IMG/VR virus record: IMGVR_UViG_3300020470_000460
Location: 1-64,000 of that record
Source of the DNA: a virus
DNA: 64,000 bases
Reading direction: 5' to 3' (one strand)
Below the pieces are notes generated by a model. That model was not told where the DNA came from, ran no database searches, and was given only the letters and a program-made list of their open reading frames with translations. The translations under genes and the position numbers were made by a program. Below, piece after piece: positions 22,550 through 35,194 of this stretch (position 1 is the stretch's first letter; the number at the start of each line of letters is the position of its first letter).

Positions 22550-22875
22550 GATGTAATGTCCTTGGGTAGATCTTCATTGCCTGGATGTTCTTTAATAACA
22601 CCCTTGTAATTCTTTTTATTATAGAAGTGCTCATCTTCAATATACATATCATCCCACTCATCAGGATATACTAGCACATTTGTCTGTGCTACACCATGCA
22701 ATGTGTCTTTCTTCTCCCATTCATGTGTGGTAACAGTAATATACTGATCACTTATGAAATTAATAACACCCTCATCTCCATCCTTTAACCTAACCTTCAT
22801 ACCTTTCTTCAATGATTTAAGAATGTTTCTTATCTCCAAAGGAATTGCCTCCGCTAAGAATATAGGAATGGTCAT
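22546..22875 (-). CDS. hypothetical protein
   Basis: Coupled ORF; G.I.FI..QYIT. Confidence 0.7.
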   Translation of the reverse strand: MTIPIFLAEAIPLEIRNILKSLKKGMKVRLKDGDEGVINFISDQYITVTTHEWEKKDTLHGVAQTNVLVYPDEWDDMYIEDEHFYNKKNYKGVIKEHPGNEDLPKDITS

Positions 22876-23495
22876 AGTTTTAATTGATGGTCATATCCGA
22901 GACCATACTCACCTCTTAATATGTAATTGAATGCCATAGAATACCTCTCGTCATTACTATTATTAATATTAATAGAATGTGTTAGATGTGATGGGAAGCA
23001 TATTATCATACCATCCTGCGGTGTGATCCTTGATACCCTCATATTATATGTGTTGTATTCCTTAACCTCTGGATATAGAGTAGTAGTACACCACGTAGGG
23101 TAAGTAGCAGGGACATAAAATGATATATCACCACTATTATATGGTATCTGAAAATACATAACACCACTGAATTGTGCGTTGTTATGTGAATGACCGTGCC
23201 CACTATCACCAGGATTATGTTTATTAATCCATGATGTTGTGTGCTCTAATTGATGTTTAGTCTCGTCTACTTGTAACACATCGTAGACATATTTTGATAC
23301 ATGATACTCAACTGTTGCCCTTATTTCTGGTTGTGATACCAACCACTGAGTTTCACTCATCCAACCATTACTATATCCTCCATTGTCATGTTTACAAGGA
23401 GTATTAATAACCTGCTGAATCATTGCATCAGTCAGATCTATTTTATTAATATATAATGGATTGGAAAATAAAGGAACTATCTGAGGATCTCTCAT
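22872..23495 (-). CDS. 2OG-Fe(II) oxygenase (TIGR02466-type)
   Basis: SWIN..HSH..FSGVMY..FPSHLTH..RYSMAFN. Confidence 0.9.
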   Translation of the reverse strand: MRDPQIVPLFSNPLYINKIDLTDAMIQQVINTPCKHDNGGYSNGWMSETQWLVSQPEIRATVEYHVSKYVYDVLQVDETKHQLEHTTSWINKHNPGDSGHGHSHNNAQFSGVMYFQIPYNSGDISFYVPATYPTWCTTTLYPEVKEYNTYNMRVSRITPQDGMIICFPSHLTHSININNSNDERYSMAFNYILRGEYGLGYDHQLKL

Positions 23496-23496
23496 A

Positions 23497-23733
23497 TCAA
23501 ATATGTTTCATGTGCAAAGTATCAATAATTGATTCAATCAGTCCCCTATCATTCTCTGGAACATTTCCATAATGCTCGCAAGCATCTTTTTGATAGAAGA
23601 ATAGTGCCTTCTTTAATAACTCTTTCTGATCGTGATTAAGAATGGCAGTTTTGAGTGACATGTACATTTGTGACCCCTTCCCCATTAGGTCTTGTGCAGA
23701 ACTATTTATTAGTGTATCTAGTTTCTTGGTCAT
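23497..23733 (-). CDS. hypothetical protein
   Basis: Coupled ORF. Confidence 0.65.
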   Translation of the reverse strand: MTKKLDTLINSSAQDLMGKGSQMYMSLKTAILNHDQKELLKKALFFYQKDACEHYGNVPENDRGLIESIIDTLHMKHI

Positions 23734-24440
23734 GTCAACAGTAATTTCTCGATTGTCTTGGAATCGAAACCAACGACTCCCATATCATTAGGTGGTGCAA
23801 TACCACGTTTGTTATCCATCTCAGCACTGGTGAATAAACTTTGTCTCTTTTTTGGTTCCATGTACTTAAAGGACATGATATATCTATTTATCGGATACCT
23901 ATTGGTTGGTGGTCTACCTGAATGGGGTACTCTCCCATCAAATACTACTATTCTACCAGGTATAGGTGACACAATACGTTGTGCTTCTAACCTATGGTCA
24001 TAGAATACAGTCTCACCACCAAAGTTAGGATTCCATTCAGGGTTAAGATATAATACTACTGTCTTATTATCCTCTACCCAATATGGTGCGTCTACATGCA
24101 CACCAGGTGTATCACCTGCCTTAAGCACATTAATATATGCACTGTATAACCAGTCACGAGGGGGCATTTTTGGGCAAATTGCTTCCAAATATTCCAGACA
24201 TTCTAGGTATAGTGGATCCTCACTCGCATCTAGTCCTGAATTTTGAAAGTAAGTAGGATCACTAACTGGTGTGAAATTATATAATTGATGTGTCCAATAT
24301 GTATTCTCTAATTGTACCTCTGGTCTTGCTGGAGTTGGTGGATCATCTGTCCGTGTGAACATATAAGGTAAGAACATTACCTTATCAAATAATTCTTGTG
24401 ATGCTAGTTTAGTATCAAATACTTCAATTGGAAAGTTCAT
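23730..24440 (-). CDS. 2OG-Fe(II) oxygenase (prolyl-hydroxylase-like)
   Basis: HVD..YLNPEW...GGET..PGRIVVFDG..PH..R. Confidence 0.9.
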   Translation of the reverse strand: MNFPIEVFDTKLASQELFDKVMFLPYMFTRTDDPPTPARPEVQLENTYWTHQLYNFTPVSDPTYFQNSGLDASEDPLYLECLEYLEAICPKMPPRDWLYSAYINVLKAGDTPGVHVDAPYWVEDNKTVVLYLNPEWNPNFGGETVFYDHRLEAQRIVSPIPGRIVVFDGRVPHSGRPPTNRYPINRYIMSFKYMEPKKRQSLFTSAEMDNKRGIAPPNDMGVVGFDSKTIEKLLLT

Positions 24441-25194
24441 GAGTGTTTAGTTTATACCATTTTCTATTAATAGGTCTCAAGTGTGGTAACATATGCTGCA
24501 TAGGTACACTAACAGACAATCTCTTACCAGTTGGCATCGCTTGATGATAACAACGTGCTGGAATGTATAATATATCACCTGGTTTTAATACGTGATCTAT
24601 TACACAATTCATCTCTCCTACATTCTCATCATGCTCAAGAGAATCAACTGCAACACTACTTACTTCAAAATCAAACTCATCCTTCAATTGCTTAGGTATC
24701 TTCAATAGATTACTACATCTATTACTATATACTTTCCAATGTGTCTCTCCTTCTACTTGTATTATAAAATTATTTGCTGTGTCTTCATGCACTCTGAATG
24801 AATGACATGGACCTAAACCTGCATAGATATGAAATGCTGTCTTACCATCAAAATATTTCTCAAACTCTTGTATTAATTCTTGCTTCTTACGGAACCCTTG
24901 ATCGAAATTATTAATAATTAAATTATGTCCTTCCTCCCATGCTTGCATTATATCTTTTACTTCAGCACATGGATTTGACCAACAACGTTCATACTGTTTA
25001 AGATCAAAGAACTGTATGATCTGCTTATCAATAAATGTAATAGAATAGAATTGTGGATTGTTGAGACAATACTCTACATCATCCCATGTTGCAAATACAT
25101 GAGGATCCTCAACAATACCTTCCCATAGTTCAGGTGCATCATCAATTGCCCAGTTTTTTGCTGTCGATATTTTAGTTAGAAGCGAAGATATCAT
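24424..25194 (-). CDS. JmjC/cupin-4 (ycfD/ROX-like) oxygenase
   Basis: SF..HED..NFIIQVEG...W.V..LKPGDILYIP...YH.A. Confidence 0.85.
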   Translation of the reverse strand: MISSLLTKISTAKNWAIDDAPELWEGIVEDPHVFATWDDVEYCLNNPQFYSITFIDKQIIQFFDLKQYERCWSNPCAEVKDIMQAWEEGHNLIINNFDQGFRKKQELIQEFEKYFDGKTAFHIYAGLGPCHSFRVHEDTANNFIIQVEGETHWKVYSNRCSNLLKIPKQLKDEFDFEVSSVAVDSLEHDENVGEMNCVIDHVLKPGDILYIPARCYHQAMPTGKRLSVSVPMQHMLPHLRPINRKWYKLNTHELSN

Positions 25195-25831
25195 GATCGC
25201 ATTTAAAATTAATGTTTAATGTTACACGGTACGCATGGTTACCGTATGGATTAGTTGAAGCATGGAACTGATGTCCATCGAATACAAATAAACTATTTGC
25301 TTCAGGTGTTACTCTCTTATGTATAGTATATTCTTGGTTCCTTCCTTTATACCATCTCTCATCTACAGTCCCATAGTTAGGGTCATCATATTGATCAAAG
25401 AATACTGTATCACCATTTGAATCATGTAGATAAAATAGTGCTGCATAATGATCTTCTTCATTATCAGTGTGTGGACAGTTATGGTGTCCCTCCTTACCTA
25501 TGTCTGTTATTAATGCTAATCTTAATCTAAAAAACTCTACCTCATGTGGTAGAGAATCTTGTATAGCATCTATCAATGGTAAGAAATGGGGTAACCAAGG
25601 ACTCTCTACACCATCCTGATCTAATAACATATGGACAAACCCGATGGATCTCTCCTTCTCAGGCACTTCATTCCTTATCTCTTCACCACCAAATTTCATA
25701 TCAGTAGCGAAATCATATGATATATCCTCTGATATAAAATACCAAGGAAATCCATTTTGTCCCGATACTATTTTATTTAAGCGAGAGAGGTACGTTGGAC
25801 CTATTATATCTTTTTTGTGGATATACTTCAT
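25172..25831 (-). CDS. 2OG-Fe(II) oxygenase
   Basis: FPWY..PHTD..GDTVFF..FDG.QFHAS..R..LNIN; probable start MKYIH. Confidence 0.88.
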   Translation of the reverse strand: MKYIHKKDIIGPTYLSRLNKIVSGQNGFPWYFISEDISYDFATDMKFGGEEIRNEVPEKERSIGFVHMLLDQDGVESPWLPHFLPLIDAIQDSLPHEVEFFRLRLALITDIGKEGHHNCPHTDNEEDHYAALFYLHDSNGDTVFFDQYDDPNYGTVDERWYKGRNQEYTIHKRVTPEANSLFVFDGHQFHASTNPYGNHAYRVTLNINFKCDHDIFASN

Positions 25832-26459
25832 CTTCACGATAATAATCAGAGAATACGTGCATATTAAATGATAGAGATATTCTATCATCCTCACTAGCAC
25901 TTCTATCAACGCTGTGCATTAACCATGATGGAAATATTACCATAGTACCAGGTTTTGGTTGCACATACCAATTGACGTAATTATGCTGATGCTCATGCCT
26001 ATCAAAATTCTCATCGCATCCCCATGATTCTTTGAGACATTGATCTGCATATGGTCTGTGGAATTGTAATTCACCACAACAGCAGTTAGGTATCTTTGCA
26101 TAGTATACACCAGCAAACATTGATCCTGAATGCGTGTGGACTGCATTACTATCACCATACTTATTAATGTTTGCCCAGAGATTACTTAATCTAACAGTAT
26201 AATCATTAAATCCAAACTCATCAGCAGCAGCATATGTATTTAATTGTATCTGCTTATGTAAGTCTTTAAATGGTGTGTTATCAATATATGGTACTACAAA
26301 ATTATTTGATTGCCATCCACCGATATTAGATTTACTCATACCTTTAGGATCTTCCTTCTGCACCTCATAGATAAAATCTACTATTAGATCATTATCTAGA
26401 TCACAGTCCTCAAATATCCACAGTGGTGTGGGAAATAATAACTCAGTCCTTAGTTGCAT
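25773..26459 (-). CDS. 2OG-Fe(II) oxygenase (TIGR02466-type)
   Basis: LFPTP, SN.GGWQS, WANIN, HTH, FPSWLMH.V, RISLSFN. Confidence 0.92.
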   Translation of the reverse strand: MQLRTELLFPTPLWIFEDCDLDNDLIVDFIYEVQKEDPKGMSKSNIGGWQSNNFVVPYIDNTPFKDLHKQIQLNTYAAADEFGFNDYTVRLSNLWANINKYGDSNAVHTHSGSMFAGVYYAKIPNCCCGELQFHRPYADQCLKESWGCDENFDRHEHQHNYVNWYVQPKPGTMVIFPSWLMHSVDRSASEDDRISLSFNMHVFSDYYREDEVYPQKRYNRSNVPLSLK

Positions 26460-26835
26460 CCTCGGTTACCTCTTCACTAGCAGGGAGTGCACCCTGTGGT
26501 TCTTCATCATTATTAAATACAAAATCTCTTTCAGTTATATTAGGATCAACATGCTTTTTAAATAATGCTAGTGCTTCAACTGCACCACTTAACTTATTAA
26601 GTGTATCCTTCTTAGTCTGCAAATCTTCTAGTGATATCTTAGTAATAGTACTAGTATAGTGCATATTATCTAACGCTTCTTGGAGTTTATAATACTCACT
26701 CTTAGTATCTTCATACTGTTGTAGAAAGTTCATTACCAATTCGTCAAAGGATATAAGACCTTCAATTTCGTTTGGCAGTTCAGTTGATAATCCTGCTTTC
26801 TCAGCAAGATTCACTTCTCTTACGTCTTCTGGCAT
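26443..26835 (-). CDS. hypothetical coiled-coil protein
   Basis: Coupled ORF. Confidence 0.7.
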   Translation of the reverse strand: MPEDVREVNLAEKAGLSTELPNEIEGLISFDELVMNFLQQYEDTKSEYYKLQEALDNMHYTSTITKISLEDLQTKKDTLNKLSGAVEALALFKKHVDPNITERDFVFNNDEEPQGALPASEEVTEDATKD

Positions 26836-27719
26836 TACTCAAACCTCTCTTTGTTTTTATTTAGGGAAAGAATTTTCTTTTGATTGTCGATGCGTCCTTT
26901 AAGTGTGGTCATCTCAGGGAAACTCATGTACCTGTGATAGTCCATGATTTCATTATTCTTAATGTCCTCCTCATTAGCATCTTCAACTATAACATCAAAC
27001 TCATCATTATTCAACCATTGTCTTGGAATAGGAATCCATTGAGCGAGTGGTGTACCTGCCTTAACAAGATACTCACCCTCTTCAATGGCATGCCAGAATA
27101 ATTGTAGATTGACTTCATATGAATAGGATGGATCTACTATACCTGTTGGTATACTAAACCTATCTTCATCATAATATGGCACTGGTATCTGTAAGAATAC
27201 CACATCTTTATGTGCTTGCACCCTCCAAGGTAGTTCTAATTTAACTACCATAGAGTTAGTTGGTCTCTGTTGATCAACTAAGTGTGACATACCCTCTGTC
27301 TGCTCAGGTGCATGTGCTTTAACAAATGATTTACCACCTGCATCAAATAATACTTGTGATATCCAAGAGAAATTCTTTGCTTCACCATCTTGTGATATAA
27401 CAAAATCTGCTGGACATTGTAGTACCCATCCACTCTCAAATAATTGATGTAATGCTGGACATGTTGCTGCGTGTTGGAATAAACCATCATAATCTGCATC
27501 ACCTACACCATAATTAAGTAATGCAGTGTGATGATTAAATAGTTTCTTGACCTTCATTACAGGACAAGCACTATCCTTACCATAATATTTCTTTAGTGCA
27601 TCATTTACCCACTTTCTTTTTATCTTCTTAGCAGGTATCCAAGGTTGTAATGCTGCCACACCTCGTTGTACTGAGTAGAATCTTACCCACTTCTTGTTCT
27701 TTTTAAACGGATTCCACAT
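26835..27719 (-). CDS. hypothetical protein, possible dUTPase-like beta fold
   Basis: CPA..GW....PADF..K...PW..G.VD..VKAGTPLAQ.IP. Confidence 0.65.
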   Translation of the reverse strand: MWNPFKKNKKWVRFYSVQRGVAALQPWIPAKKIKRKWVNDALKKYYGKDSACPVMKVKKLFNHHTALLNYGVGDADYDGLFQHAATCPALHQLFESGWVLQCPADFVISQDGEAKNFSWISQVLFDAGGKSFVKAHAPEQTEGMSHLVDQQRPTNSMVVKLELPWRVQAHKDVVFLQIPVPYYDEDRFSIPTGIVDPSYSYEVNLQLFWHAIEEGEYLVKAGTPLAQWIPIPRQWLNNDEFDVIVEDANEEDIKNNEIMDYHRYMSFPEMTTLKGRIDNQKKILSLNKNKERFE

Positions 27720-29274
27720 AGATATTATCCTTTAGATATTGATAATGAGATGGTAATGTATCAACCCACTCTAACATATGCTCTTTATTTTTGCAATAGT
27801 CTTTATGATATTGTTCAATCTCTTTGAATCTTTCTTCATCTGCTCTCTCATTTAATATAGATCTAGTAAATGGTTTGTATCCCATTCCTGCTGAAATATA
27901 TATTGTCCCTTCACCTAACATACTAGGATCATATACCTTAGTCTCTAATGTATCTAATAATCGTCTATAATCACTAATAGCATGTAATGATGACTCATCA
28001 GGATTATCAGTAAATTTATAGAATCTTTCAACATTATTAGTGGCATCCCTCCAGTATGGAGTATCTTCTCTCATACTGAAAGTATAATGATTTACCACGA
28101 AATTCTTATATGATTCTAATAGTTTATTAGTAGCATAATTATATGCTATACGATCTTGATTAACTACATGTCCATCACGAGTAGATAATATATCATCTAA
28201 GAAAATAATATTATCATGTGTAGTGACCAGTCCAGTTGATTCTAATGGTTCTATGAATCCATATGCTAGACCAATACCTACAACATTATTAACCCATCCC
28301 ACCTTGTGCTTACCATGCTTTATTTTTATAGGCATTAATGGGCATTCTTGGTCATCTAGATACTCTCTAAACTCCTCCTCTGCCTCAGCATCAGAGATAT
28401 ATTTACTAGAGTAAACATATCCTGTACCTATATTATTCCACATGGGAATATTATATACCCATCCATTCTTCATTGCAACACAGTCAGTGAAAGTATCCAT
28501 CTGTGTCTCTTTATCCTTATATTCAATATGTGTTGCTAATGCTCTATCATTGAATAATTGATCTGTGAATGGAATAAATGGTACACCCATGTGCTGCTCT
28601 AATAGCAGTGATCTAAATCCTGTGCAATCTATGAATAGATCAGCACTAATTGCTTGACCATCTGTTGTAGTGATAGCAGATATATTTCCATCAGGTGTCT
28701 TAACTACATTATGTACTTCACCTACTAAATGATGACAACCATTTGGTACTGCTATATTATCTCTTAAATACTCACCAAACTTATCAGCATTGAGATGATA
28801 AGCAAGATCAGTATCAGGATTATAATATGAATCAGGTATCTCTTTGGTTATCTTACCATGCTCTGTTGGATATGTTAATGGATTAACAAACCTAGCAAAC
28901 TCATCTGAATCATAATCATATACCCATGATGCCTCAAAGTATTTCTGAATATGAAATGGTGTCTCATCACGTGGTGGACCAAATGCTCCAAAAGGATATT
29001 GAAATGACTCACCCTTTCCTTCTTTAAAATTCTTAAATCTAATTGATGACTTATATGTAGCATTACAATGTGTCATCCAGTCTTCATCCTTAAGACCTAA
29101 TCTTAATAGAAATCTATTAAAATCTGCCAGAGTTGATTCACCTACACCTATAGGTTTAATATCAGGAGATTCTATTAGACATATCTCAATGTCTGGATGT
29201 GACTTAGATAGCAATGCTGCTGTCATCCATCCTGATGTACCACCACCTACAATACAAATAGATTCAACTCGCAT
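27703..29274 (-). CDS. flavin-dependent (tryptophan-type) halogenase
   Basis: GGGTSG, IGVGEST, ATYK (catalytic Lys), WVYNIP, FIEPLESTG. Confidence 0.92.
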   Translation of the reverse strand: MRVESICIVGGGTSGWMTAALLSKSHPDIEICLIESPDIKPIGVGESTLADFNRFLLRLGLKDEDWMTHCNATYKSSIRFKNFKEGKGESFQYPFGAFGPPRDETPFHIQKYFEASWVYDYDSDEFARFVNPLTYPTEHGKITKEIPDSYYNPDTDLAYHLNADKFGEYLRDNIAVPNGCHHLVGEVHNVVKTPDGNISAITTTDGQAISADLFIDCTGFRSLLLEQHMGVPFIPFTDQLFNDRALATHIEYKDKETQMDTFTDCVAMKNGWVYNIPMWNNIGTGYVYSSKYISDAEAEEEFREYLDDQECPLMPIKIKHGKHKVGWVNNVVGIGLAYGFIEPLESTGLVTTHDNIIFLDDILSTRDGHVVNQDRIAYNYATNKLLESYKNFVVNHYTFSMREDTPYWRDATNNVERFYKFTDNPDESSLHAISDYRRLLDTLETKVYDPSMLGEGTIYISAGMGYKPFTRSILNERADEERFKEIEQYHKDYCKNKEHMLEWVDTLPSHYQYLKDNIYVESV

Positions 29275-30721
29275 ATAGATTCTCCTTATAGTAATCGTAT
29301 GGGCACTGTAATTTATCTATACCCTTCCAAGGATCAGGTACATGCTCTGGTACCGTGCCACCTGCATAGTAGTCAAGTTCTTTATAAACTAGATCACTAA
29401 ATGGATTCCATCCTTGACCTGCTTGGACATAGAATGATCCTTCACTTGATAGATCACCCCAGTTATATGCGTCACCAAATGTTGAAGATGGTAATCCTAG
29501 ATTCCTCTGGAATCTAAAGAAGCAATGATCATCAGGATAATGCTTATCACATATATGCTGCCAATATGGTGTGTCATTACGTTGAGTATATGCAAAGTGT
29601 GATGCTACAAACATAGCAAACTCATCGAAACTACCATTACAATTATTATTAAATGTATCTCTCATTAGTTGTGTAACAGTATCTCTACCATCCATCACAC
29701 GTAAGAACATCAATAAGAAATTATGTATGGATAGTATACCATTAGATTCTAATGGTTCAAGGAAACCAGCAGACAATCCAATTGATATTACATTACCATT
29801 CCACATCTCCTTTCTTCTACCTGTTGTCCATTTAATAACACGGAACATCTTGTCAGTATATGCTCCTACATCTGACTCTATATTATCTGCAAGATAATCT
29901 CTAAACTCATCTATTGCTTCTTGATCTGAGCAGAACTTATCACAATATACATATCCACTACCTATTCTAGTCCACGTGGGTACATTCCAACACCAACCAT
30001 TATCAAGAGCAACACAATCTGTGACTGGTTTCATTTGCTCTTCTTTATTATTATAGGCAAACCTGGTCACAACTGCACTATTATTTGGCAGTATGTCACT
30101 CATATCCACCCAAGGTGAATCATTTAATAGTGATTTGAATCCTGTGCAATCAAAATATAGATCTGCTTTAGGTAATCTCTTAGGGTTTATCTTCCTCTTA
30201 ACATGTCTAACACCACGAGGTAGTGCAAAATTATCTCTTAACCACTCACCAAACTTAACTGCATCAAAATGGAATCCAGTATATTTGTGTAGATCCCAGT
30301 AATCATTTGTTAATGGTAGTTTATTCTGTGTTACACATGCTGCTGCATAACTATAGTCTTCAGCAAACTTAGAATTATTCCATCCATACTTCTTCTGATA
30401 ATACCACCACTGTGCAGGTTCAAATAAATCACCCCTTGGCGGACCAAATGGGTACTGCCAAGGGGTATCCCCTTTCTTATGAAAATTATGAAATCTTACA
30501 CTTGCTTTATATGTTGCATCACATGCCTCCATCCAATCCTCATCCTTCAGATCAAGGAAGTGACACCATAGTCTAAAAAATTGTGTGGTTGACTCACCTA
30601 CACCAACAGAGGGAGTCTTAGCATCTTCGTACAAAACAATATCCCAATCGGGATATGCTTTGACCAGCGTAGATGCAGTCATCCAACCAGCGGTACCACC
30701 GCCAACAATAACAATTTTCAT
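29264..30721 (-). CDS. flavin-dependent (tryptophan-type) halogenase
   Basis: GGGTAG, VGVGEST, ATYK, WCWNVP, FLEPLESNG. Confidence 0.92.
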   Translation of the reverse strand: MKIVIVGGGTAGWMTASTLVKAYPDWDIVLYEDAKTPSVGVGESTTQFFRLWCHFLDLKDEDWMEACDATYKASVRFHNFHKKGDTPWQYPFGPPRGDLFEPAQWWYYQKKYGWNNSKFAEDYSYAAACVTQNKLPLTNDYWDLHKYTGFHFDAVKFGEWLRDNFALPRGVRHVKRKINPKRLPKADLYFDCTGFKSLLNDSPWVDMSDILPNNSAVVTRFAYNNKEEQMKPVTDCVALDNGWCWNVPTWTRIGSGYVYCDKFCSDQEAIDEFRDYLADNIESDVGAYTDKMFRVIKWTTGRRKEMWNGNVISIGLSAGFLEPLESNGILSIHNFLLMFLRVMDGRDTVTQLMRDTFNNNCNGSFDEFAMFVASHFAYTQRNDTPYWQHICDKHYPDDHCFFRFQRNLGLPSSTFGDAYNWGDLSSEGSFYVQAGQGWNPFSDLVYKELDYYAGGTVPEHVPDPWKGIDKLQCPYDYYKENLYAS

Positions 30722-30745
30722 AACGAATCTGTTCTGTTTTGTATT

Positions 30746-31174
30746 CTACCCTGGAGGTACCCAGTTGTCAACCCAAGGATCCCAAGGATCTCTTCCTTCT
30801 AGTTGGATCTTCTTAGGATCTTGTACAAATGGGGGAATAGATGCTGGTGCAGCAACAGTTGCTTTCACGTTTGCTACGTGATCTTTCCAACGTGTACCAC
30901 CATCTAATGAGTCTTTGTACTGCATATCCAACTGTTCACCTACGTCACCGTAAGCAATAATTCTGTCAACGACTGCTTCTTCACGTAAATCTTCATTGTC
31001 ATGATGATCTACTAGCACACCATTGACCATTTGCTTATCAAAGTTAGCGTCATCAGGCACTTCACACCACTTCATAGTTGCATCAGCACCTTCATAAATT
31101 TCAAATTTGTCTGCTTCATCACAGATATCAGATAATGCACCTGTGTCTTTAGAAACGATTGCCCATTTAGCCAT
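30746..31174 (-). CDS. putative tail fibre assembly chaperone/accessory protein
   Basis: R..AY....EQLDM.Y.....G..WKDH...VK pattern; follows fibre genes; AAGGAG RBS. Confidence 0.6.
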   Translation of the reverse strand: MAKWAIVSKDTGALSDICDEADKFEIYEGADATMKWCEVPDDANFDKQMVNGVLVDHHDNEDLREEAVVDRIIAYGDVGEQLDMQYKDSLDGGTRWKDHVANVKATVAAPASIPPFVQDPKKIQLEGRDPWDPWVDNWVPPG

Positions 31175-31199
31175 GATTGATTAAATCTCCTTGTAAATC

Positions 31200-31207
31200 T
31201 ATTTATT
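31200..31207 (-). promoter_or_regulatory. late promoter AATAAATA
   Basis: NATAAATA 26 bp upstream of the ATG at 31174. Confidence 0.65.
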
Positions 31208-32030
31208 AACCGTAGTATTCGTAAACTACTACTACACCTTCTCGACCTCTAGCACCTCGGTTACCCTCACGAGCACCATTACCACCTGATCCCCAAGCAG
31301 CATGTGATTGATGCCTATGGGAATAATTTTCTTGCTGGTGACTAGCAGGTTGTGATCCACCCATATAGGATGCACCAGACGTATAGTTACCGTATTTAGA
31401 CCAGTTACCGTAACCATTTCCACCGCCACCATAGGCGTTCATGTTACCACCTGATCCATTACCACCATACCCACCAGCGTGTTGCTGTGAGCAGTTGGCA
31501 CCAATACCTGCCGAAGCACTACAGTATCCACCAAAAGATGATCCGTTACCGTTACCACCACAACCAGCGTAACTAGTACCACCACCTGGGTTACCAACTG
31601 AAACACTTACAGATGATACATTACTTACATCAATAACTCTTTCAGAGAATCCACCAGCACCACCTGATTCACATTTACCTGATCCTCCACCACCTGCACC
31701 AACTACTTGGACTCTAATACTTTTTACATCAGATGGTCTATACCATGTACCGTTACCAGTCCATACTTGCATGGATCTAAATCCAGCACCACCACTACCT
31801 CCACCTGATATATCTGTTGACCAGACGAGGTTTGTACCATTGGTGCTTAAGAATTGTCCTGACTGACCTGAGAAATCAGGTATATTGAAGTTAGAACTAC
31901 CAGTAATAGTACCATTTATGTTTATGTCATTGACCTTGAGCGTCCCGTTGCAGGTGATAGATCCACTCGATAGAGTGAAACCACCTAGACCAGCGAGGTC
32001 AGTAACTCCTGTAACTTTAAGAACACTCAT
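31206..32030 (-). CDS. glycine-rich adhesin-like tail fibre tip protein, paralog 3
   Basis: True start MSVLKVTG (ATGA overlap); TW..P..V..I.V.VVGAGGGGSG...G.VVVYEY. Confidence 0.8.
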   Translation of the reverse strand: MSVLKVTGVTDLAGLGGFTLSSGSITCNGTLKVNDININGTITGSSNFNIPDFSGQSGQFLSTNGTNLVWSTDISGGGSGGAGFRSMQVWTGNGTWYRPSDVKSIRVQVVGAGGGGSGKCESGGAGGFSERVIDVSNVSSVSVSVGNPGGGTSYAGCGGNGNGSSFGGYCSASAGIGANCSQQHAGGYGGNGSGGNMNAYGGGGNGYGNWSKYGNYTSGASYMGGSQPASHQQENYSHRHQSHAAWGSGGNGAREGNRGARGREGVVVVYEYYG

Positions 32031-32836
32031 CCGTAGAACTCCTGAACGATAACGATACCTTCTCTTCCTCTGGCACCACGACCTCCGTGTTTTGCTCCAT
32101 TTCCACCAGCACCCCATGCACAGTGTGATTGGTGTCTATGAGAGTAATTACCTTGGTTATGAGAGGAAGGTTGTGTGCCTCCTATGTATGACATACCAGC
32201 AGTGACGCAACCGAATGACCAGTGAGATCCATGTCCGTTACCTCCACCACCATATACATTCAGGTTACCACCTGAACCATTTCCACCAATTCCTCCAGCA
32301 TGCTGTTGTCTACAGTTTGCACCGTATCCTCCAGACGCAGAGCAATAACCACCGAATGATGAAGTATTACCTCCACCACCACATCCAGAATAGTTAGATC
32401 CTCCACCTGGATTACCTACCGAAACTGATATAGATGATACGTTTGATACATCTATTACCCTTTCTGCCATTCCACCAGCACCACCAGATTCAGTATAACC
32501 TGATCCACCGCCACCAGCACCTACAACAGTAACAATAATAGTACCTACATCAGATGGTTTATACCATGTGCCATTACCAGTCCATACTTGCATGGATCTG
32601 ATACCAGTACCAGCACTAACTCCTGACCAAACATACTCAGAACCAGTGGATCTCAATGCTTTACCTTCGTTACCACCCATAGGAGGTACAACGAAAGTTG
32701 ATCCACCACGAATCGCACCGTTAATGACCACATTAGAGCATGTCAGGGTAGTTGTGGCAGTGATACCACCACCAGCAAGCATGAATCCTTGTGCTCCAGT
32801 TAAGTCTTTTAGTGCTGATACTTTAAGTTTTGACAT
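32027..32836 (-). CDS. glycine-rich adhesin-like tail fibre tip protein, paralog 2
   Basis: Same domain as its neighbours. Confidence 0.8.
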   Translation of the reverse strand: MSKLKVSALKDLTGAQGFMLAGGGITATTTLTCSNVVINGAIRGGSTFVVPPMGGNEGKALRSTGSEYVWSGVSAGTGIRSMQVWTGNGTWYKPSDVGTIIVTVVGAGGGGSGYTESGGAGGMAERVIDVSNVSSISVSVGNPGGGSNYSGCGGGGNTSSFGGYCSASGGYGANCRQQHAGGIGGNGSGGNLNVYGGGGNGHGSHWSFGCVTAGMSYIGGTQPSSHNQGNYSHRHQSHCAWGAGGNGAKHGGRGARGREGIVIVQEFYG

Positions 32837-32839
32837 GTC

Positions 32840-33649
32840 TTAACCGTAAAATTCATGTACAACTACGACACCTTCACGACCTCTTGCACCACGTCCACCT
32901 TCTCTACATCCATTACCACCTGATCCCCAGGCAGCATGTGATTGGTGTCTATGTGCATAGTTTTGCTGTTGGTGAGATGCAGGTTGTCCTCCACCCCAAT
33001 ATGATTTACCACATGTGTGGTTACCATAAGTGTAATGAGATCCGTGTCCTGATCCCCCTCCACCGTAAATATTTAGTGATCCACCTGATCCGTTACCACC
33101 ATATCCTCCTGCATGTTGCTGAGAACAGTTAGCACCGATTCCTCTTGAAGCACTACAGTATCCACCGAATGACGATGAGTTTCCGTTACCACCACATCCA
33201 GCGTAATTAGTACCACCACCAGGATTACCTACTGTAACAGATACAGATGATACGTTAGTTACATCTATCTGTCTTTGTGCTGTACCTCCAGCACCACCTG
33301 ATTCCATGAATCCAGATCCACCTCCACCAGCACCAGTTACAGTCACCATAATGGTTTTAACATCAGATGGTTTATACCATGTACCGTTACCAGTCCAGAC
33401 CTGCATAGATCTAACACCAGAAGCAGATGATAAAGTACCCCAAGTGAGTGCTGACCCATTAGTTGAGATATATTCATCAGTGTGACCTGATGGATTGGGG
33501 AGAATATATGCAGACGAACCTGCTAATGTACCACTAATTTCTATGTCTTGTACATTAAGAGTACCATTGGCAGTGATACCCCCACTCGTGAAAGTAAACC
33601 CTCCAATACCACCTACGTCTTTTATAGCTCCCAGGTTTAACTGTGCCAT
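32840..33649 (-). CDS. glycine-rich adhesin-like tail fibre tip protein, paralog 1
   Basis: Same domain as its neighbours. Confidence 0.8.
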   Translation of the reverse strand: MAQLNLGAIKDVGGIGGFTFTSGGITANGTLNVQDIEISGTLAGSSAYILPNPSGHTDEYISTNGSALTWGTLSSASGVRSMQVWTGNGTWYKPSDVKTIMVTVTGAGGGGSGFMESGGAGGTAQRQIDVTNVSSVSVTVGNPGGGTNYAGCGGNGNSSSFGGYCSASRGIGANCSQQHAGGYGGNGSGGSLNIYGGGGSGHGSHYTYGNHTCGKSYWGGGQPASHQQQNYAHRHQSHAAWGSGGNGCREGGRGARGREGVVVVHEFYG

Positions 33650-33673
33650 ACTAAACTACTACCTGTATGTTTC

Positions 33674-33681
33674 TATTTATC
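33674..33681 (-). promoter_or_regulatory. late promoter GATAAATA
   Basis: Upstream of the ATG at 33649. Confidence 0.65.
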
Positions 33682-33686
33682 ATTAT

Positions 33687-34304
33687 TTATATCAGATATT
33701 TACCACCGTGTCCTTGATTCTGAGCAAAGGGATTATGTTCACTTATGTCTAAGCAACTACTCATACCCTCAAAATCAGCAGACAAATTGAATGCGATAGA
33801 TATCCTATCATCATCACTCTCATTCTCAGTCACGTCATGCTCCAACCATGATGGGAAATATATTAATGTCCCTGGTTGTGGTTCGATTTCGTGATAATCT
33901 AAACCATCATTAAAATACTCATGATCTCTTTGCACTTGGACTAATGGACCTCTAGGATCCCAAAATCTTATGCTACCTGAGTATTTAGGCACCTTCACAT
34001 AGTATACTCCTGATAATAATATATTAGTATCAGCATGTAAATGCCTCTTATTACTAGCACCTTTAGGGTTTATATTACACCAAGAGTATACACACAAATC
34101 CTTTAATGGTTTGTCCTCTCTAAATGGACAATTAGCAGCAATAAGATCTACCCAATCCCTATTATAAAACAAATCACCCTGATAACCTCCATTACTGGAG
34201 TAAGGGTGATTAGGTTCAGTCTTAGAGAAATTATATATCTCTTCTGCTAACTTATCATTGTCAAAATCAATTCTCTTAATCCAGAGAGGGGTGCCAAATA
34301 TCAT
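33687..34304 (-). CDS. 2OG-Fe(II) oxygenase (TIGR02466-type)
   Basis: SN.GGYQ, WCNIN, HLH, LSGVYY, FPSWLEH.V, RISIAFN. Confidence 0.92.
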   Translation of the reverse strand: MIFGTPLWIKRIDFDNDKLAEEIYNFSKTEPNHPYSSNGGYQGDLFYNRDWVDLIAANCPFREDKPLKDLCVYSWCNINPKGASNKRHLHADTNILLSGVYYVKVPKYSGSIRFWDPRGPLVQVQRDHEYFNDGLDYHEIEPQPGTLIYFPSWLEHDVTENESDDDRISIAFNLSADFEGMSSCLDISEHNPFAQNQGHGGKYLI

Positions 34305-34318
34305 AATAAAAAAATTAA

Positions 34319-35194
34319 TTAACTAAAGTTTCGATAATGTCCTAGGACTACAAATTCTTCGTTATCATCTTGGTTTTTAGGTACCTTATCTATAATAAGG
34401 AAGTCACACATAGCATAGTCATTACCCATACTTGGACCTCCTCTGGTTGTGCACCATTCAATAGGACAGTTTACACCAAGAATACTTATAGAGGATGGTA
34501 ATCCGTTAGCACCTGCATTCTCACAAATAACTCTAAAGTGATATAAACTACCATCACCATTGTGCTCATCCATATCAGTGAGATTTAATCTCCAGTTACC
34601 ACCACCATTTCTTGTAACATATATTGTGTTACCATTGTTAATACTATGAGTTACATCACCACTATACTCAGCATAAAACTTACAATGCTCTTTACGACCA
34701 CCTGAGAAGTGCATTCCAGTTGATCTAAAATCTTCAGTTATTATATCTACAACCTCAAGGTTTAACATGTCATCACCACCGAGGATATTCCACGTGGCAT
34801 TATTTTCAATCGTGACAGTATAACCGTTTGCAATAGTAATAGGACCTGCTGAGAAACCGTTGGTGAATTCCACACCACCGTTAGCAACTGGACCTATAGT
34901 TAAATTCTCTTCAATAGTAGTGCCGTTAGTCCTAATTATACTATTCTCACCAACACTTGGACCTCCTCCACCTACGTCCGTCCAACCTGGAACACCCTGA
35001 GCAGCATCTTGCTTATAGATCTGTGCCATGTCCTCGGTACTATTATACACAATGGTACCATAGGCAGGTGTGCCCAATGCTGTTACTGCTGATTGGTTAA
35101 GAGCAGGTAGATTGAGTTGCTCTGTCAACTGTAGTGCCTCCATTATGGCACGAGTTGAAGCATCAATCTGATTTCCAATTATCTTGGTGGACAT
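34319..35194 (-). CDS. tail fibre-related structural protein
   Basis: GTIVYNST, IIRTN...I.EN.TI, SAGPITIANG.TVTI...W.I fibre modules. Confidence 0.7.
   Translation of the reverse strand: MSTKIIGNQIDASTRAIMEALQLTEQLNLPALNQSAVTALGTPAYGTIVYNSTEDMAQIYKQDAAQGVPGWTDVGGGGPSVGENSIIRTNGTTIEENLTIGPVANGGVEFTNGFSAGPITIANGYTVTIENNATWNILGGDDMLNLEVVDIITEDFRSTGMHFSGGRKEHCKFYAEYSGDVTHSINNGNTIYVTRNGGGNWRLNLTDMDEHNGDGSLYHFRVICENAGANGLPSSISILGVNCPIEWCTTRGGPSMGNDYAMCDFLIIDKVPKNQDDNEEFVVLGHYRNFS

Follow-up and report, generated by a model that had tools for sequence, protein, structure and literature searches.

The 64,000-nucleotide (nt) stretch analysed here, called the window in the following, covers positions 1 to 64,000 of IMG/VR virus record IMGVR_UViG_3300020470_000460, a 74-kb record from a T4-like cyanomyovirus that is about 40 % complete and for which we found no near-identical phage records. 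Nearly every gene of the window is carried on the minus strand, among them a conserved cyanomyovirus cassette that joins a receptor-binding tail-fibre module to two flavin-dependent halogenases and a set of Fe(II)/2-oxoglutarate (2OG) and JmjC oxygenases (Table 1). The fibre module ends with three paralogous glycine-rich (Gly-rich) genes followed by the gene of a 142-amino-acid (aa) chaperone-like protein, directly behind which the enzyme genes begin. An earlier note on this DNA, made from its letters without database searches, had proposed that these enzymes form a late kit for the post-translational modification of fibre-tip proteins, comparable to the machinery of ribosomally synthesized and post-translationally modified peptides (RiPPs).

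Gene content of the locus

The open reading frames (ORFs) and domains described in the earlier note were all placed correctly on the minus strand, in agreement with Pfam and phrog matches. Its step of about 25 bp between the chaperone-like gene and the first halogenase gene measures 24 nt, and from there on the gene chain is indeed unbroken, as every junction from 30721 to 20429, that is over the roughly 10 kb from halogenase 1 to a DNA methyltransferase gene, abuts or overlaps; past the cassette the chain runs on into purC and this methyltransferase gene. The extra 2OG gene that had been noticed amid the fibre genes is likewise present and belongs to the Oxy_5 family, with a gap of 14 nt to the gene of the 291-aa protein. 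The latter resembles the end of a fibre family in its N-terminus and lies 5′ of the Gly-rich genes in most related loci. The start of Gly-rich gene 3, by contrast with the earlier placement at 32117, is most likely to be found at 32030, giving a protein of 274 aa.

Table 1. Genes and promoter motifs of the fibre–halogenase–oxygenase cassette and its surroundings (positions within the window).
Feature	Position	Strand	Evidence
Late-promoter motif CTAAATA, 28 nt 5′ of 1190-aa fibre gene	38820	-	
Tail-fibre protein, 1190 aa	35220-38792	-	phrog_529, E 0
Late-promoter motif, 23 nt 5′ of 291-aa gene	35217	-	
291-aa fibre-module protein, Syn9 gp35 family	34319-35194	-	phrog_29506, E 6e-79
2OG-Fe(II) oxygenase, 2OG-FeII_Oxy_5, HAD motif at residue 90	33687-34304	-	Pfam, E 1e-24
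Tandem late-promoter motifs ATAAATA/TATAAATA before Gly-rich gene 1	33674-33691 (sites 33690, 33680)	-	
Gly-rich fibre receptor-binding protein 1 (model-based)	32840-33649	-	Gly_rich_2 and AlphaFold2 fold
Gly-rich fibre protein 2, paralogue	32027-32836	-	Gly_rich_2
Gly-rich fibre protein 3, paralogue, start revised	31206-32030	-	Gly_rich_2
Late-promoter motif ATAAATA, 32 nt 5′ of chaperone-like gene ATG	31200-31206	-	
142-aa tail-fibre-assembly-chaperone-like protein	30746-31174	-	AlphaFold2 build and position
Sigma70-type promoter candidate TTGACA-17-TAGAAT, 11/12	30771-30743	-	
Flavin-dependent halogenase 1, 485 aa, Syn9 gp41 type	29264-30721	-	Pfam Trp_halogenase, E 3e-86
Flavin-dependent halogenase 2, 523 aa, VirX1 orthologue (by sequence)	27703-29274	-	Pfam Trp_halogenase, E 2e-108
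294-aa protein, Syn9 gp43 family	26835-27719	-	phrog_7084, E 4e-53
Late-promoter motif CTAAATA, 29 nt 5′ of 130-aa gene, within the end of the 294-aa gene	26858-26864	-	
130-aa protein, acidic, helical	26443-26835	-	
2OG-Fe(II) oxygenase Oxy_5, HxH replacing HxD	25773-26459	-	Pfam, E 2e-23
Probable 2OG oxygenase, weak Oxy_3, HTD motif	25172-25888	-	22 bits, Pfam cut-off 27
JmjC_2/Cupin_8 oxygenase, MINA/NO66/YcfD clade, HED motif	24424-25194	-	Pfam, E 2e-18
2OG oxygenase Oxy_3, prolyl-hydroxylase-like, HVD motif	23730-24440	-	Pfam, E 2e-10
78-aa ORF, conserved in cassette	23497-23733	-	
2OG oxygenase Oxy_5, HxH variant	22872-23495	-	Pfam, E 4e-19

Conservation of the fibre–halogenase unit

For the best 80 IMG/VR loci found with the Gly-rich gene as anchor (43–98 % identity), neighbouring genes were labelled by tblastn. 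The 76 loci whose sequence extended far enough downstream to be informative all show the order Gly-rich genes, chaperone-like gene, halogenase gene, and in each of them the chaperone-like gene directly follows the last Gly-rich gene on its 3′ side. Around this core of fixed order the loci vary in the number of Gly-rich copies (1–4) and halogenases (1–2), in the presence of the 294-aa gene and in their oxygenase content, with the 294-aa gene and the oxygenases including JmjC coming after the halogenase in most cases. A phylogenetic linkage of enzymes and fibre genes, which the earlier note had set as a test of its proposal, is hence found when the locus is approached from the Gly-rich side. Members of the chaperone family occur in 20 of 50,697 phage records, representing 11 cyanophage species that carry a halogenase beside Gly-rich or fibre genes (Syn9, Syn10, P-TIM40, S-RIM44, S-CREM1, S-WAM1, S-SZBM1, P-RSM6, Sf-FR1, Sf-FP1 and Sf-CH3) and span several genera of the International Committee on Taxonomy of Viruses.

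The cassette is embedded in two different backgrounds, one having the fibre and 291-aa genes before it and small ORFs and a methyltransferase gene after it, the other a giant structural protein before it and the neck genes gp13 and gp14 after it. The adjacency of fibre module and halogenase also persists in three layouts, namely coupling over 3–25 nt, separation by a terminator with a late motif of the halogenase's own, and convergent orientation. The convergent layout was seen at four of the linked loci (L169, L181, L179 and L182), with the chaperone gene detected in L169 and L181 only; enzyme cluster and Gly-rich genes are found there on opposite strands, adjacent without being co-transcribed. 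The unit remains invariant amid varying neighbours and withstands such rearrangement, and the case for the halogenases being functionally tied to the fibre and chaperone genes is stronger than synteny as such would make it.

Anchoring on the halogenase instead, the best 80 loci divided into 44 with the fibre module, 21 without it and 15 uninformative ones. With 76 of 76 informative loci linked in one direction and 21 of 65 unlinked in the other, the implication is one-directional: this fibre type always has an adjacent halogenase, while sets of halogenase and oxygenase genes exist without it. One such set is present in Synechococcus phage Sf-CH11, where a halogenase and three 2OG genes, in the absence of a Gly-rich or chaperone gene, are flanked on one side by a giant structural protein with a GspG-like protein and on the other by a LamG-like protein, after which the neck genes come. 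Sf-CH11 thus carries the same enzymes beside a different type of putative adhesin.

Fibre-tip proteins and the chaperone-like protein

Compared by sequence with the Protein Data Bank (PDB), the Gly-rich protein gave no match. The AlphaFold2 (AF2) model of Gly-rich protein 1, with a mean predicted local distance difference test (pLDDT) value of 81.9, superimposes on Pam3 gp24 (7ypx_A) with a Z score of 21.4 and a root-mean-square deviation of 2.4 Å over 181 aa at 29 % identity (Foldseek E 4e-9). Further fold matches were obtained with the Bxb1 tail tip (Z 15.5) and the glycine-rich domain of ALK (Z 8.6–9.6), and the fold comprises a tumour necrosis factor (TNF)-like and a polyglycine domain of the Pam3 gp24 type. 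In Pam3, the receptor-binding tip, whose distal loops are hypervariable, has this fold (PMC9608196). On the strength of the model, the genes that the earlier note had called adhesin-like are assigned as encoding bona fide fibre receptor-binding proteins. The Pam3 pair gp24/gp25 (PDB 7YPX; PMC9608196) shares this TNF-like, glycine-rich fold with them, but differs in having a single fibre gene and neither halogenase nor oxygenases. Polyglycine-based receptor-binding tips with hypervariable distal loops are also known from the T-even adhesin gp38 (S16 gp38, PDB 6F45), with which gp24 was compared by its authors (PMC9608196); S16 gp38 is, however, absent among the listed structural matches and gave no sequence match, leaving Pam3 gp24 as the closest solved relative. 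In the alignment of the Gly-rich family, Y149, Y164, H179, H202, H226, H235, H238 and W91 are invariant or nearly so besides the glycines, and residues ~203–222 form a hypervariable loop with many His, Tyr and Trp residues.

The 142-aa protein was modelled by AF2 with a pLDDT of 92.7 as an N-terminal five-stranded beta domain followed by a helical domain and a variable tail. Its fold matches are weak, comprising Mu Tfa (5yvq_B, E 1.4) and Pam3 gp25 (7ypx_a, Z 3.9 over 99 aa), at Foldseek E values of 1.4–3.3 and with nothing above Z 4.5 in the fold search, and a Pfam scan of 42 members of the chaperone family yielded no credible match. Atlas leads towards DUF2977 or XkdW were discarded at scores below 0.9. 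Pam3 gp25 itself is built from a beta-sandwich and a helical domain (PMC9608196) and, like the 142-aa protein, is encoded after the fibre gene; the cyanomyovirus family, apart from the weakness of the match, differs from it by its additional variable tail bearing an invariant Trp. Given this gp25- and Mu Tfa-like build and the place of the gene after the fibre genes, the label of an assembly chaperone, in line with the earlier note's 'chaperone-like', appears reasonable but unproven.

A single Trp of the tail, W131, is invariant in 80 unique sequences of the family, where it usually stands in the context P-[ACS]-W, and is an attractive candidate for a halogenation site. The gene bearing it lies directly upstream of the 'tryptophan' halogenase genes. 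The number of Trp residues in the tail did not correlate cleanly with the number of halogenases. In S-MbCM6 and S-PM2, whose halogenase is unlinked, the small proteins encoded upstream of this enzyme do not resemble the chaperone.

Halogenases and oxygenases

Both halogenases exceed the Pfam Trp_halogenase cut-off of 21 bits, with 290 bits for halogenase 1 and 364 bits for halogenase 2. Halogenase 2 aligns over its full length with VirX1 of cyanophage Syn10 (PDB 6QGM, E 2e-148) and shares ~47 % identity with the Syn10/Syn9 gene, while halogenase 1 matches the same structure with E 4e-90; by sequence comparison, halogenase 2 is the VirX1 orthologue and halogenase 1 its paralogue. The characteristic halogenase motifs are present as GGGTAG/GGGTSG, K72/K75 and FLEPLESNG/FIEPLESTG, and across 29 phage halogenases G10-12, K75, E342, W272 and P277 are invariant. 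As in VirX1, the flavin adenine dinucleotide (FAD) motif, the Lys and the Glu are conserved in halogenase 2. The WxWxIP motif reads GWCWNVP in halogenase 1 and GWVYNIP in halogenase 2, so that the latter, unlike VirX1, has Tyr in place of the second Trp; the first Trp and the Pro of this motif are invariant. A further difference lies in the fact that VirX1 has been studied as a small-molecule biocatalyst. Its active site is said to be open, and we know of neither an established natural substrate nor an established argument from genomic context for it.

The oxygenases encoded at 33687, 25773, 23730, 22872 and 24424 scored above their Pfam 2OG or JmjC cut-offs, and the one at 25172 below (22 versus 27 bits). 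The HxD/E start of the metal-binding triad is found in four of them as HAD, HTD, HVD and HED, with HxH at the place aligned by hand in the proteins encoded at 25773 and 22872. These two Oxy_5 proteins read HTH and HSH, their paralogue at 33687 HAD, and the HxH proteins could possess a three-His metal site instead of the 2-His-1-carboxylate triad. For the Syn9 counterparts, gp49 was assigned to the MINA clade and the family of the 294-aa protein (gp43) was described as having a dUTPase fold with a conserved Cys (PMC2938197); a DUF6065 match of the 294-aa protein in Atlas is taken as a lead only.

Promoters and expression timing

ATAAATA-type motifs were confirmed at both places where the earlier note had seen late promoters, 33674 and 31200, with the tandem motifs lying 31–41 nt 5′ of the ATG of Gly-rich gene 1. 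On the minus strand of the window, [ACT]TAAATA occurs at 38 sites, of which 11 fall 27–41 nt 5′ of a gene start against about one expected, and this motif class accordingly exceeds chance; a twelfth site, 35217, stands 23 nt from its gene, that of the 291-aa protein. We then considered unique upstream regions across the related loci, counting motifs 20–45 nt 5′ of the start codon. Late motifs precede 78 % of the fibre genes, 70 % of the homologues of Gly-rich gene 1, 55 % of the chaperone genes, 54 % of the 291-aa genes and 82 % of the 130-aa genes, but none of the several hundred starts surveyed for the oxygenase, JmjC and 294-aa genes. The CTAAATA before the 130-aa gene, one of the 11 sites and not mentioned in the earlier note, recurs in 23 of 28 unique upstream regions of homologues, that of P-TIM40 among them, and is found at −53 in Syn9. 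None of the 37 homologues of the oxygenase gene at 33687 has a late motif, nor does the gene of the window have one of its own.

The halogenase genes differ between clades in how they are connected to the fibre module. In one clade, represented by six loci, an intrinsic terminator ends the chaperone gene and a TAAATA motif follows ~30 nt 5′ of the halogenase ATG; in another, chaperone and halogenase genes are spaced by a promoterless gap of 3–18 nt. Owing to the late motifs, the tight coupling and the halogenase motif in the terminator clade, it appears likely, if well short of certain, that the halogenases are expressed late, and late timing of the cassette as a whole is likewise likely from these motifs. 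Two marine metatranscriptomes (5 % word share each) contained contigs of relatives only, from which starts and timing cannot be read. Terminator-like hairpins situated within genes (25554, 26587, 30656 and 33523) are unlikely operon boundaries; the first of them, a hairpin with a T-run at 25535-25554 on the minus strand, lies inside the oxygenase gene at 25172-25888.

The earlier note had reported no early promoter between the fibre genes and the enzymes, a statement that does not hold: TTGACA-17-TAGAAT, the top sigma70 match within 19.5 kb, is located directly 5′ of halogenase 1 and ends 22 nt before its ATG. The −10 hexamer TAGAAT overlaps with the chaperone gene's stop codon, and the −35 hexamer falls in the coding motif VDNW of the same upstream gene. 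In related loci the site scores 10–11 of 12 in 17 of 20 cases, reaching 11 of 12 in 13 of these, and the −10 alternates among TAGAAT, TAAAAT, TATTAT and CATAAT, always remaining a good hexamer. Scanning the whole window gave seven sites of at least 11 of 12 compared to 3.4 expected; as this enrichment is modest, the promoter call relies on position and conservation, from which the site is a probable additional promoter. The proposed late co-expression with the fibre genes is thereby only partly upheld, with the late motifs, the tight coupling and the terminator clade speaking for it and the sigma70-type site before halogenase 1 against it. A shared geometry, with the −35 starting 48–52 nt 5′ of the ATG and the −10 often being TAGAAT, was observed at 10966-10938, 21433-21405, 30771-30743 and 43050-43023 on the minus strand, which points to a class of early promoters that would be peculiar to the phage and have a short, fixed leader.

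Proposed role and alternatives

We propose that the enzymes of the cassette would be made late in infection alongside the fibre proteins and would have proteins of the fibre assembly line as their substrates. With FADH2, O2 and halide supplied by the host, the halogenases would halogenate aromatic side chains; candidate sites are the distal loops of the Gly-rich proteins, which are hypervariable and abound in His, Tyr and Trp, and the chaperone's invariant tail Trp. Hydroxylation of side chains, in the same fibre proteins or in neighbouring ones, would fall to the oxygenases of the JmjC and prolyl-hydroxylase types. That the enzymes tailor fibre assembly-line proteins in this general sense is plausible and the likeliest of the readings considered here, yet far from secure. 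Rather doubtful is its narrower form, according to which halogenases and JmjC/2OG enzymes would serve as tail-fibre maturation enzymes acting on the Gly-rich tip or the chaperone Trp while the chaperone holds the tip.

Peptidyl-Trp flavin-dependent halogenases such as MibH and SrpI act on ribosomal peptides and are encoded beside the gene of their substrate. The present locus differs from theirs, as neither a short leader/core precursor nor a recognition element, protease or exporter was found among the ORFs of 20–39 kb, and the putative substrates would be folded proteins. The 142-aa protein, which bears an invariant Trp in its tail, is the sole candidate for a RiPP precursor but is itself folded, and the term 'RiPP-like' used in the earlier note can consequently be kept as an analogy only. 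Taken together, the earlier tailoring-kit reading is supported in part: it stands with respect to the linkage and the probable late timing, its chemistry is a proposal, and the lack of an early promoter has to be given up.

A number of points weigh against fibre tailoring. The protein substrate and the chemistry are our inference, and VirX1 reportedly halogenates small molecules in vitro, accepting many small aromatic substrates. No Flavin_Reduct match was detected in the 74-kb record, which is itself only about 40 % complete; a host flavin reductase could supply the halogenases. The chaperone tail is modelled with high AF2 confidence, which suggests that W131 may serve in structural packing and not as a site of modification, and the sigma70-type promoter preceding halogenase 1 in the clade of the window makes early expression possible. 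The unlinked VirX1-like loci, those 21 of 65 for which no Gly-rich or chaperone gene was detectable within 7 kb, have their halogenases adjoining baseplate-like proteins or replication genes, more distant cyanophage halogenases sit in psbA/hli regions, and much of the linkage may stem from few ancestral events. Bacterial loci encode a halogenase and a JmjC-type cupin beside TonB receptors and SapC without any fibres (MT835646; PMC2938197). As to the oxygenases, 2OG enzymes are present in 14 of 16 cyanomyovirus genomes (PMC3037559), and cyanophage 2OG batteries also occur in several contexts away from fibre genes; being near-universal and found in several contexts, the oxygenase battery is less specifically linked to the fibre than the halogenases.

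The bacterial loci, with genes for TonB receptor, SapC, Cupin_8 and Trp-halogenase, share the pairing of halogenase and JmjC-type enzyme with the cassette and sometimes contain a 2OG enzyme resembling Syn9 gp52 (PMC2938197), but are linked to outer-membrane receptors and lack genes for fibres or chaperones. In their sequences, the halogenases of the phages stand nearer to the RebH/Thal type than to the solved members of the bacterial TonB-locus group. The 'Bacteriophage sp.' record MT835646 of human faecal origin was rejected as an independent phage case, as it looks bacterial, encoding SapC, Cupin_8, a Trp-halogenase and an amine oxidase together with two TonB receptors.

Alternatively, a free amino acid or small peptide might be processed by the halogenases and the diverse dioxygenases one after the other, yielding a compound both halogenated and hydroxylated in the course of infection. 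The fibre genes would be irrelevant to such a secondary-metabolite or peptide pathway, an explanation we regard as unlikely but worth serious consideration. The small aromatic substrates that VirX1 is said to accept in large number fit such a pathway, as does the association of halogenase with oxygenase, which is broader than that of halogenase with fibre; moreover, enzymes of these types are combined in bacterial loci with TonB receptors and, elsewhere, with peptide synthetases. Iyer et al. argued for this reading in 2010, when they described the gp41-gp54 cluster of Syn9 and interpreted it as serving secondary-metabolite synthesis by analogy with cephamycin and other pathways (PMC2938197). 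The Syn9 cluster resembles the cassette closely in that it contains, in the same order, two Trp-type halogenases, a gp43-like protein, tandem 2OG dioxygenases and one JmjC protein of the MINA/NO66 type, and differs in having ten tandem oxygenases, compared to six in all in the window, one of which lies between fibre genes. The fibre/chaperone coupling and the late motifs are not remarked upon in their account (PMC2938197). Neither a non-ribosomal peptide synthetase nor an ATP-grasp enzyme, polyketide synthase, carrier protein or exporter is encoded in the cassette, late-promoter control would be unusual for an auxiliary metabolic gene, and a metabolite pathway leaves unexplained why a halogenase constantly stands beside the Gly-rich/chaperone module in three layouts.

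Modification of host components, be it ribosomal proteins, nucleic acids or the envelope or receptor in order to avoid trapping by debris or to block superinfection, seems quite improbable to us. It would agree with the placement of the JmjC protein in the ribosomal-oxygenase clade (PMC2938197), with the sigma70-type promoter 5′ of halogenase 1, with bacterial homologues adjoining outer-membrane TonB receptors and with the many cyanophage contexts of 2OG genes, and late timing would be compatible with the masking of receptors. Any host target is purely conjectural, however, the enzymes are cytoplasmic and require FADH2 or 2OG, and host modification by itself does not predict strict coupling to one fibre/chaperone family. 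Least credible is the absence of any functional link, with the end of the fibre module being a hyperplastic insertion site and the linkage reflecting the shared ancestry of one cyanomyovirus lineage: cyanomyovirus genomes are highly syntenic with known accessory-gene hot-spots (PMC3037559), gene content 3′ of the halogenase is variable and halogenase/oxygenase sets are found without the Gly-rich module, but Gly-rich, chaperone and halogenase genes alone are fixed where all else varies, the unit is retained in two flanking backgrounds and in convergent orientation, and the halogenase gains a late motif of its own where a terminator splits off the chaperone gene.

Tailoring of fibre proteins has a precedent as a prediction, since Iyer et al. 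expected certain bacterial 2OG dioxygenases to hydroxylate co-encoded tail-collar and Gly-rich proteins (PMC2938197). Sullivan et al. proposed in 2010 that the 2OG enzymes have roles in 2OG/nitrogen signalling or DNA repair. Our literature search found no prior statement connecting the halogenase/oxygenase cluster to the tail fibre or to post-translational modification; the enzyme cluster is thus already published, while the strict fibre–chaperone–halogenase unit and its predicted promoter architecture appear to be new as far as we could find.

The natural substrate of the cyanophage halogenases has been a question since the first cyanomyovirus genomes, as has that of the large 2OG batteries, and VirX1 serves as a biocatalyst although its role in nature is not known. 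Since a halogenase adjoins every occurrence of this fibre/chaperone family, and late motifs are present, the search for a substrate is narrowed to a few proteins, and these candidates can be tested directly in the cultured phages Syn9, Syn10, P-TIM40 and S-RIM44. If fibre tailoring were true, enzymatic halogenation and hydroxylation would join the ways by which phages diversify their receptor-binding proteins, with the first enzymatically halogenated virion protein supplying the natural substrate of VirX1; if it were refuted, the published metabolite reading would be strengthened.

Further halogenase genes

The record contains a third, short gene of the halogenase family (390 aa) at ~72735-73907 on the minus strand, just past the end of the window and beside psbA. 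It lies upstream of the gene of a 1255-aa structural protein and resembles the short unlinked halogenases that S-ShM2 and S-MbCM6 encode; the same part of the record holds a further 2OG gene (L104:3696-4289). Some viral contigs, seven in our set, carry three to four halogenase genes in tandem.

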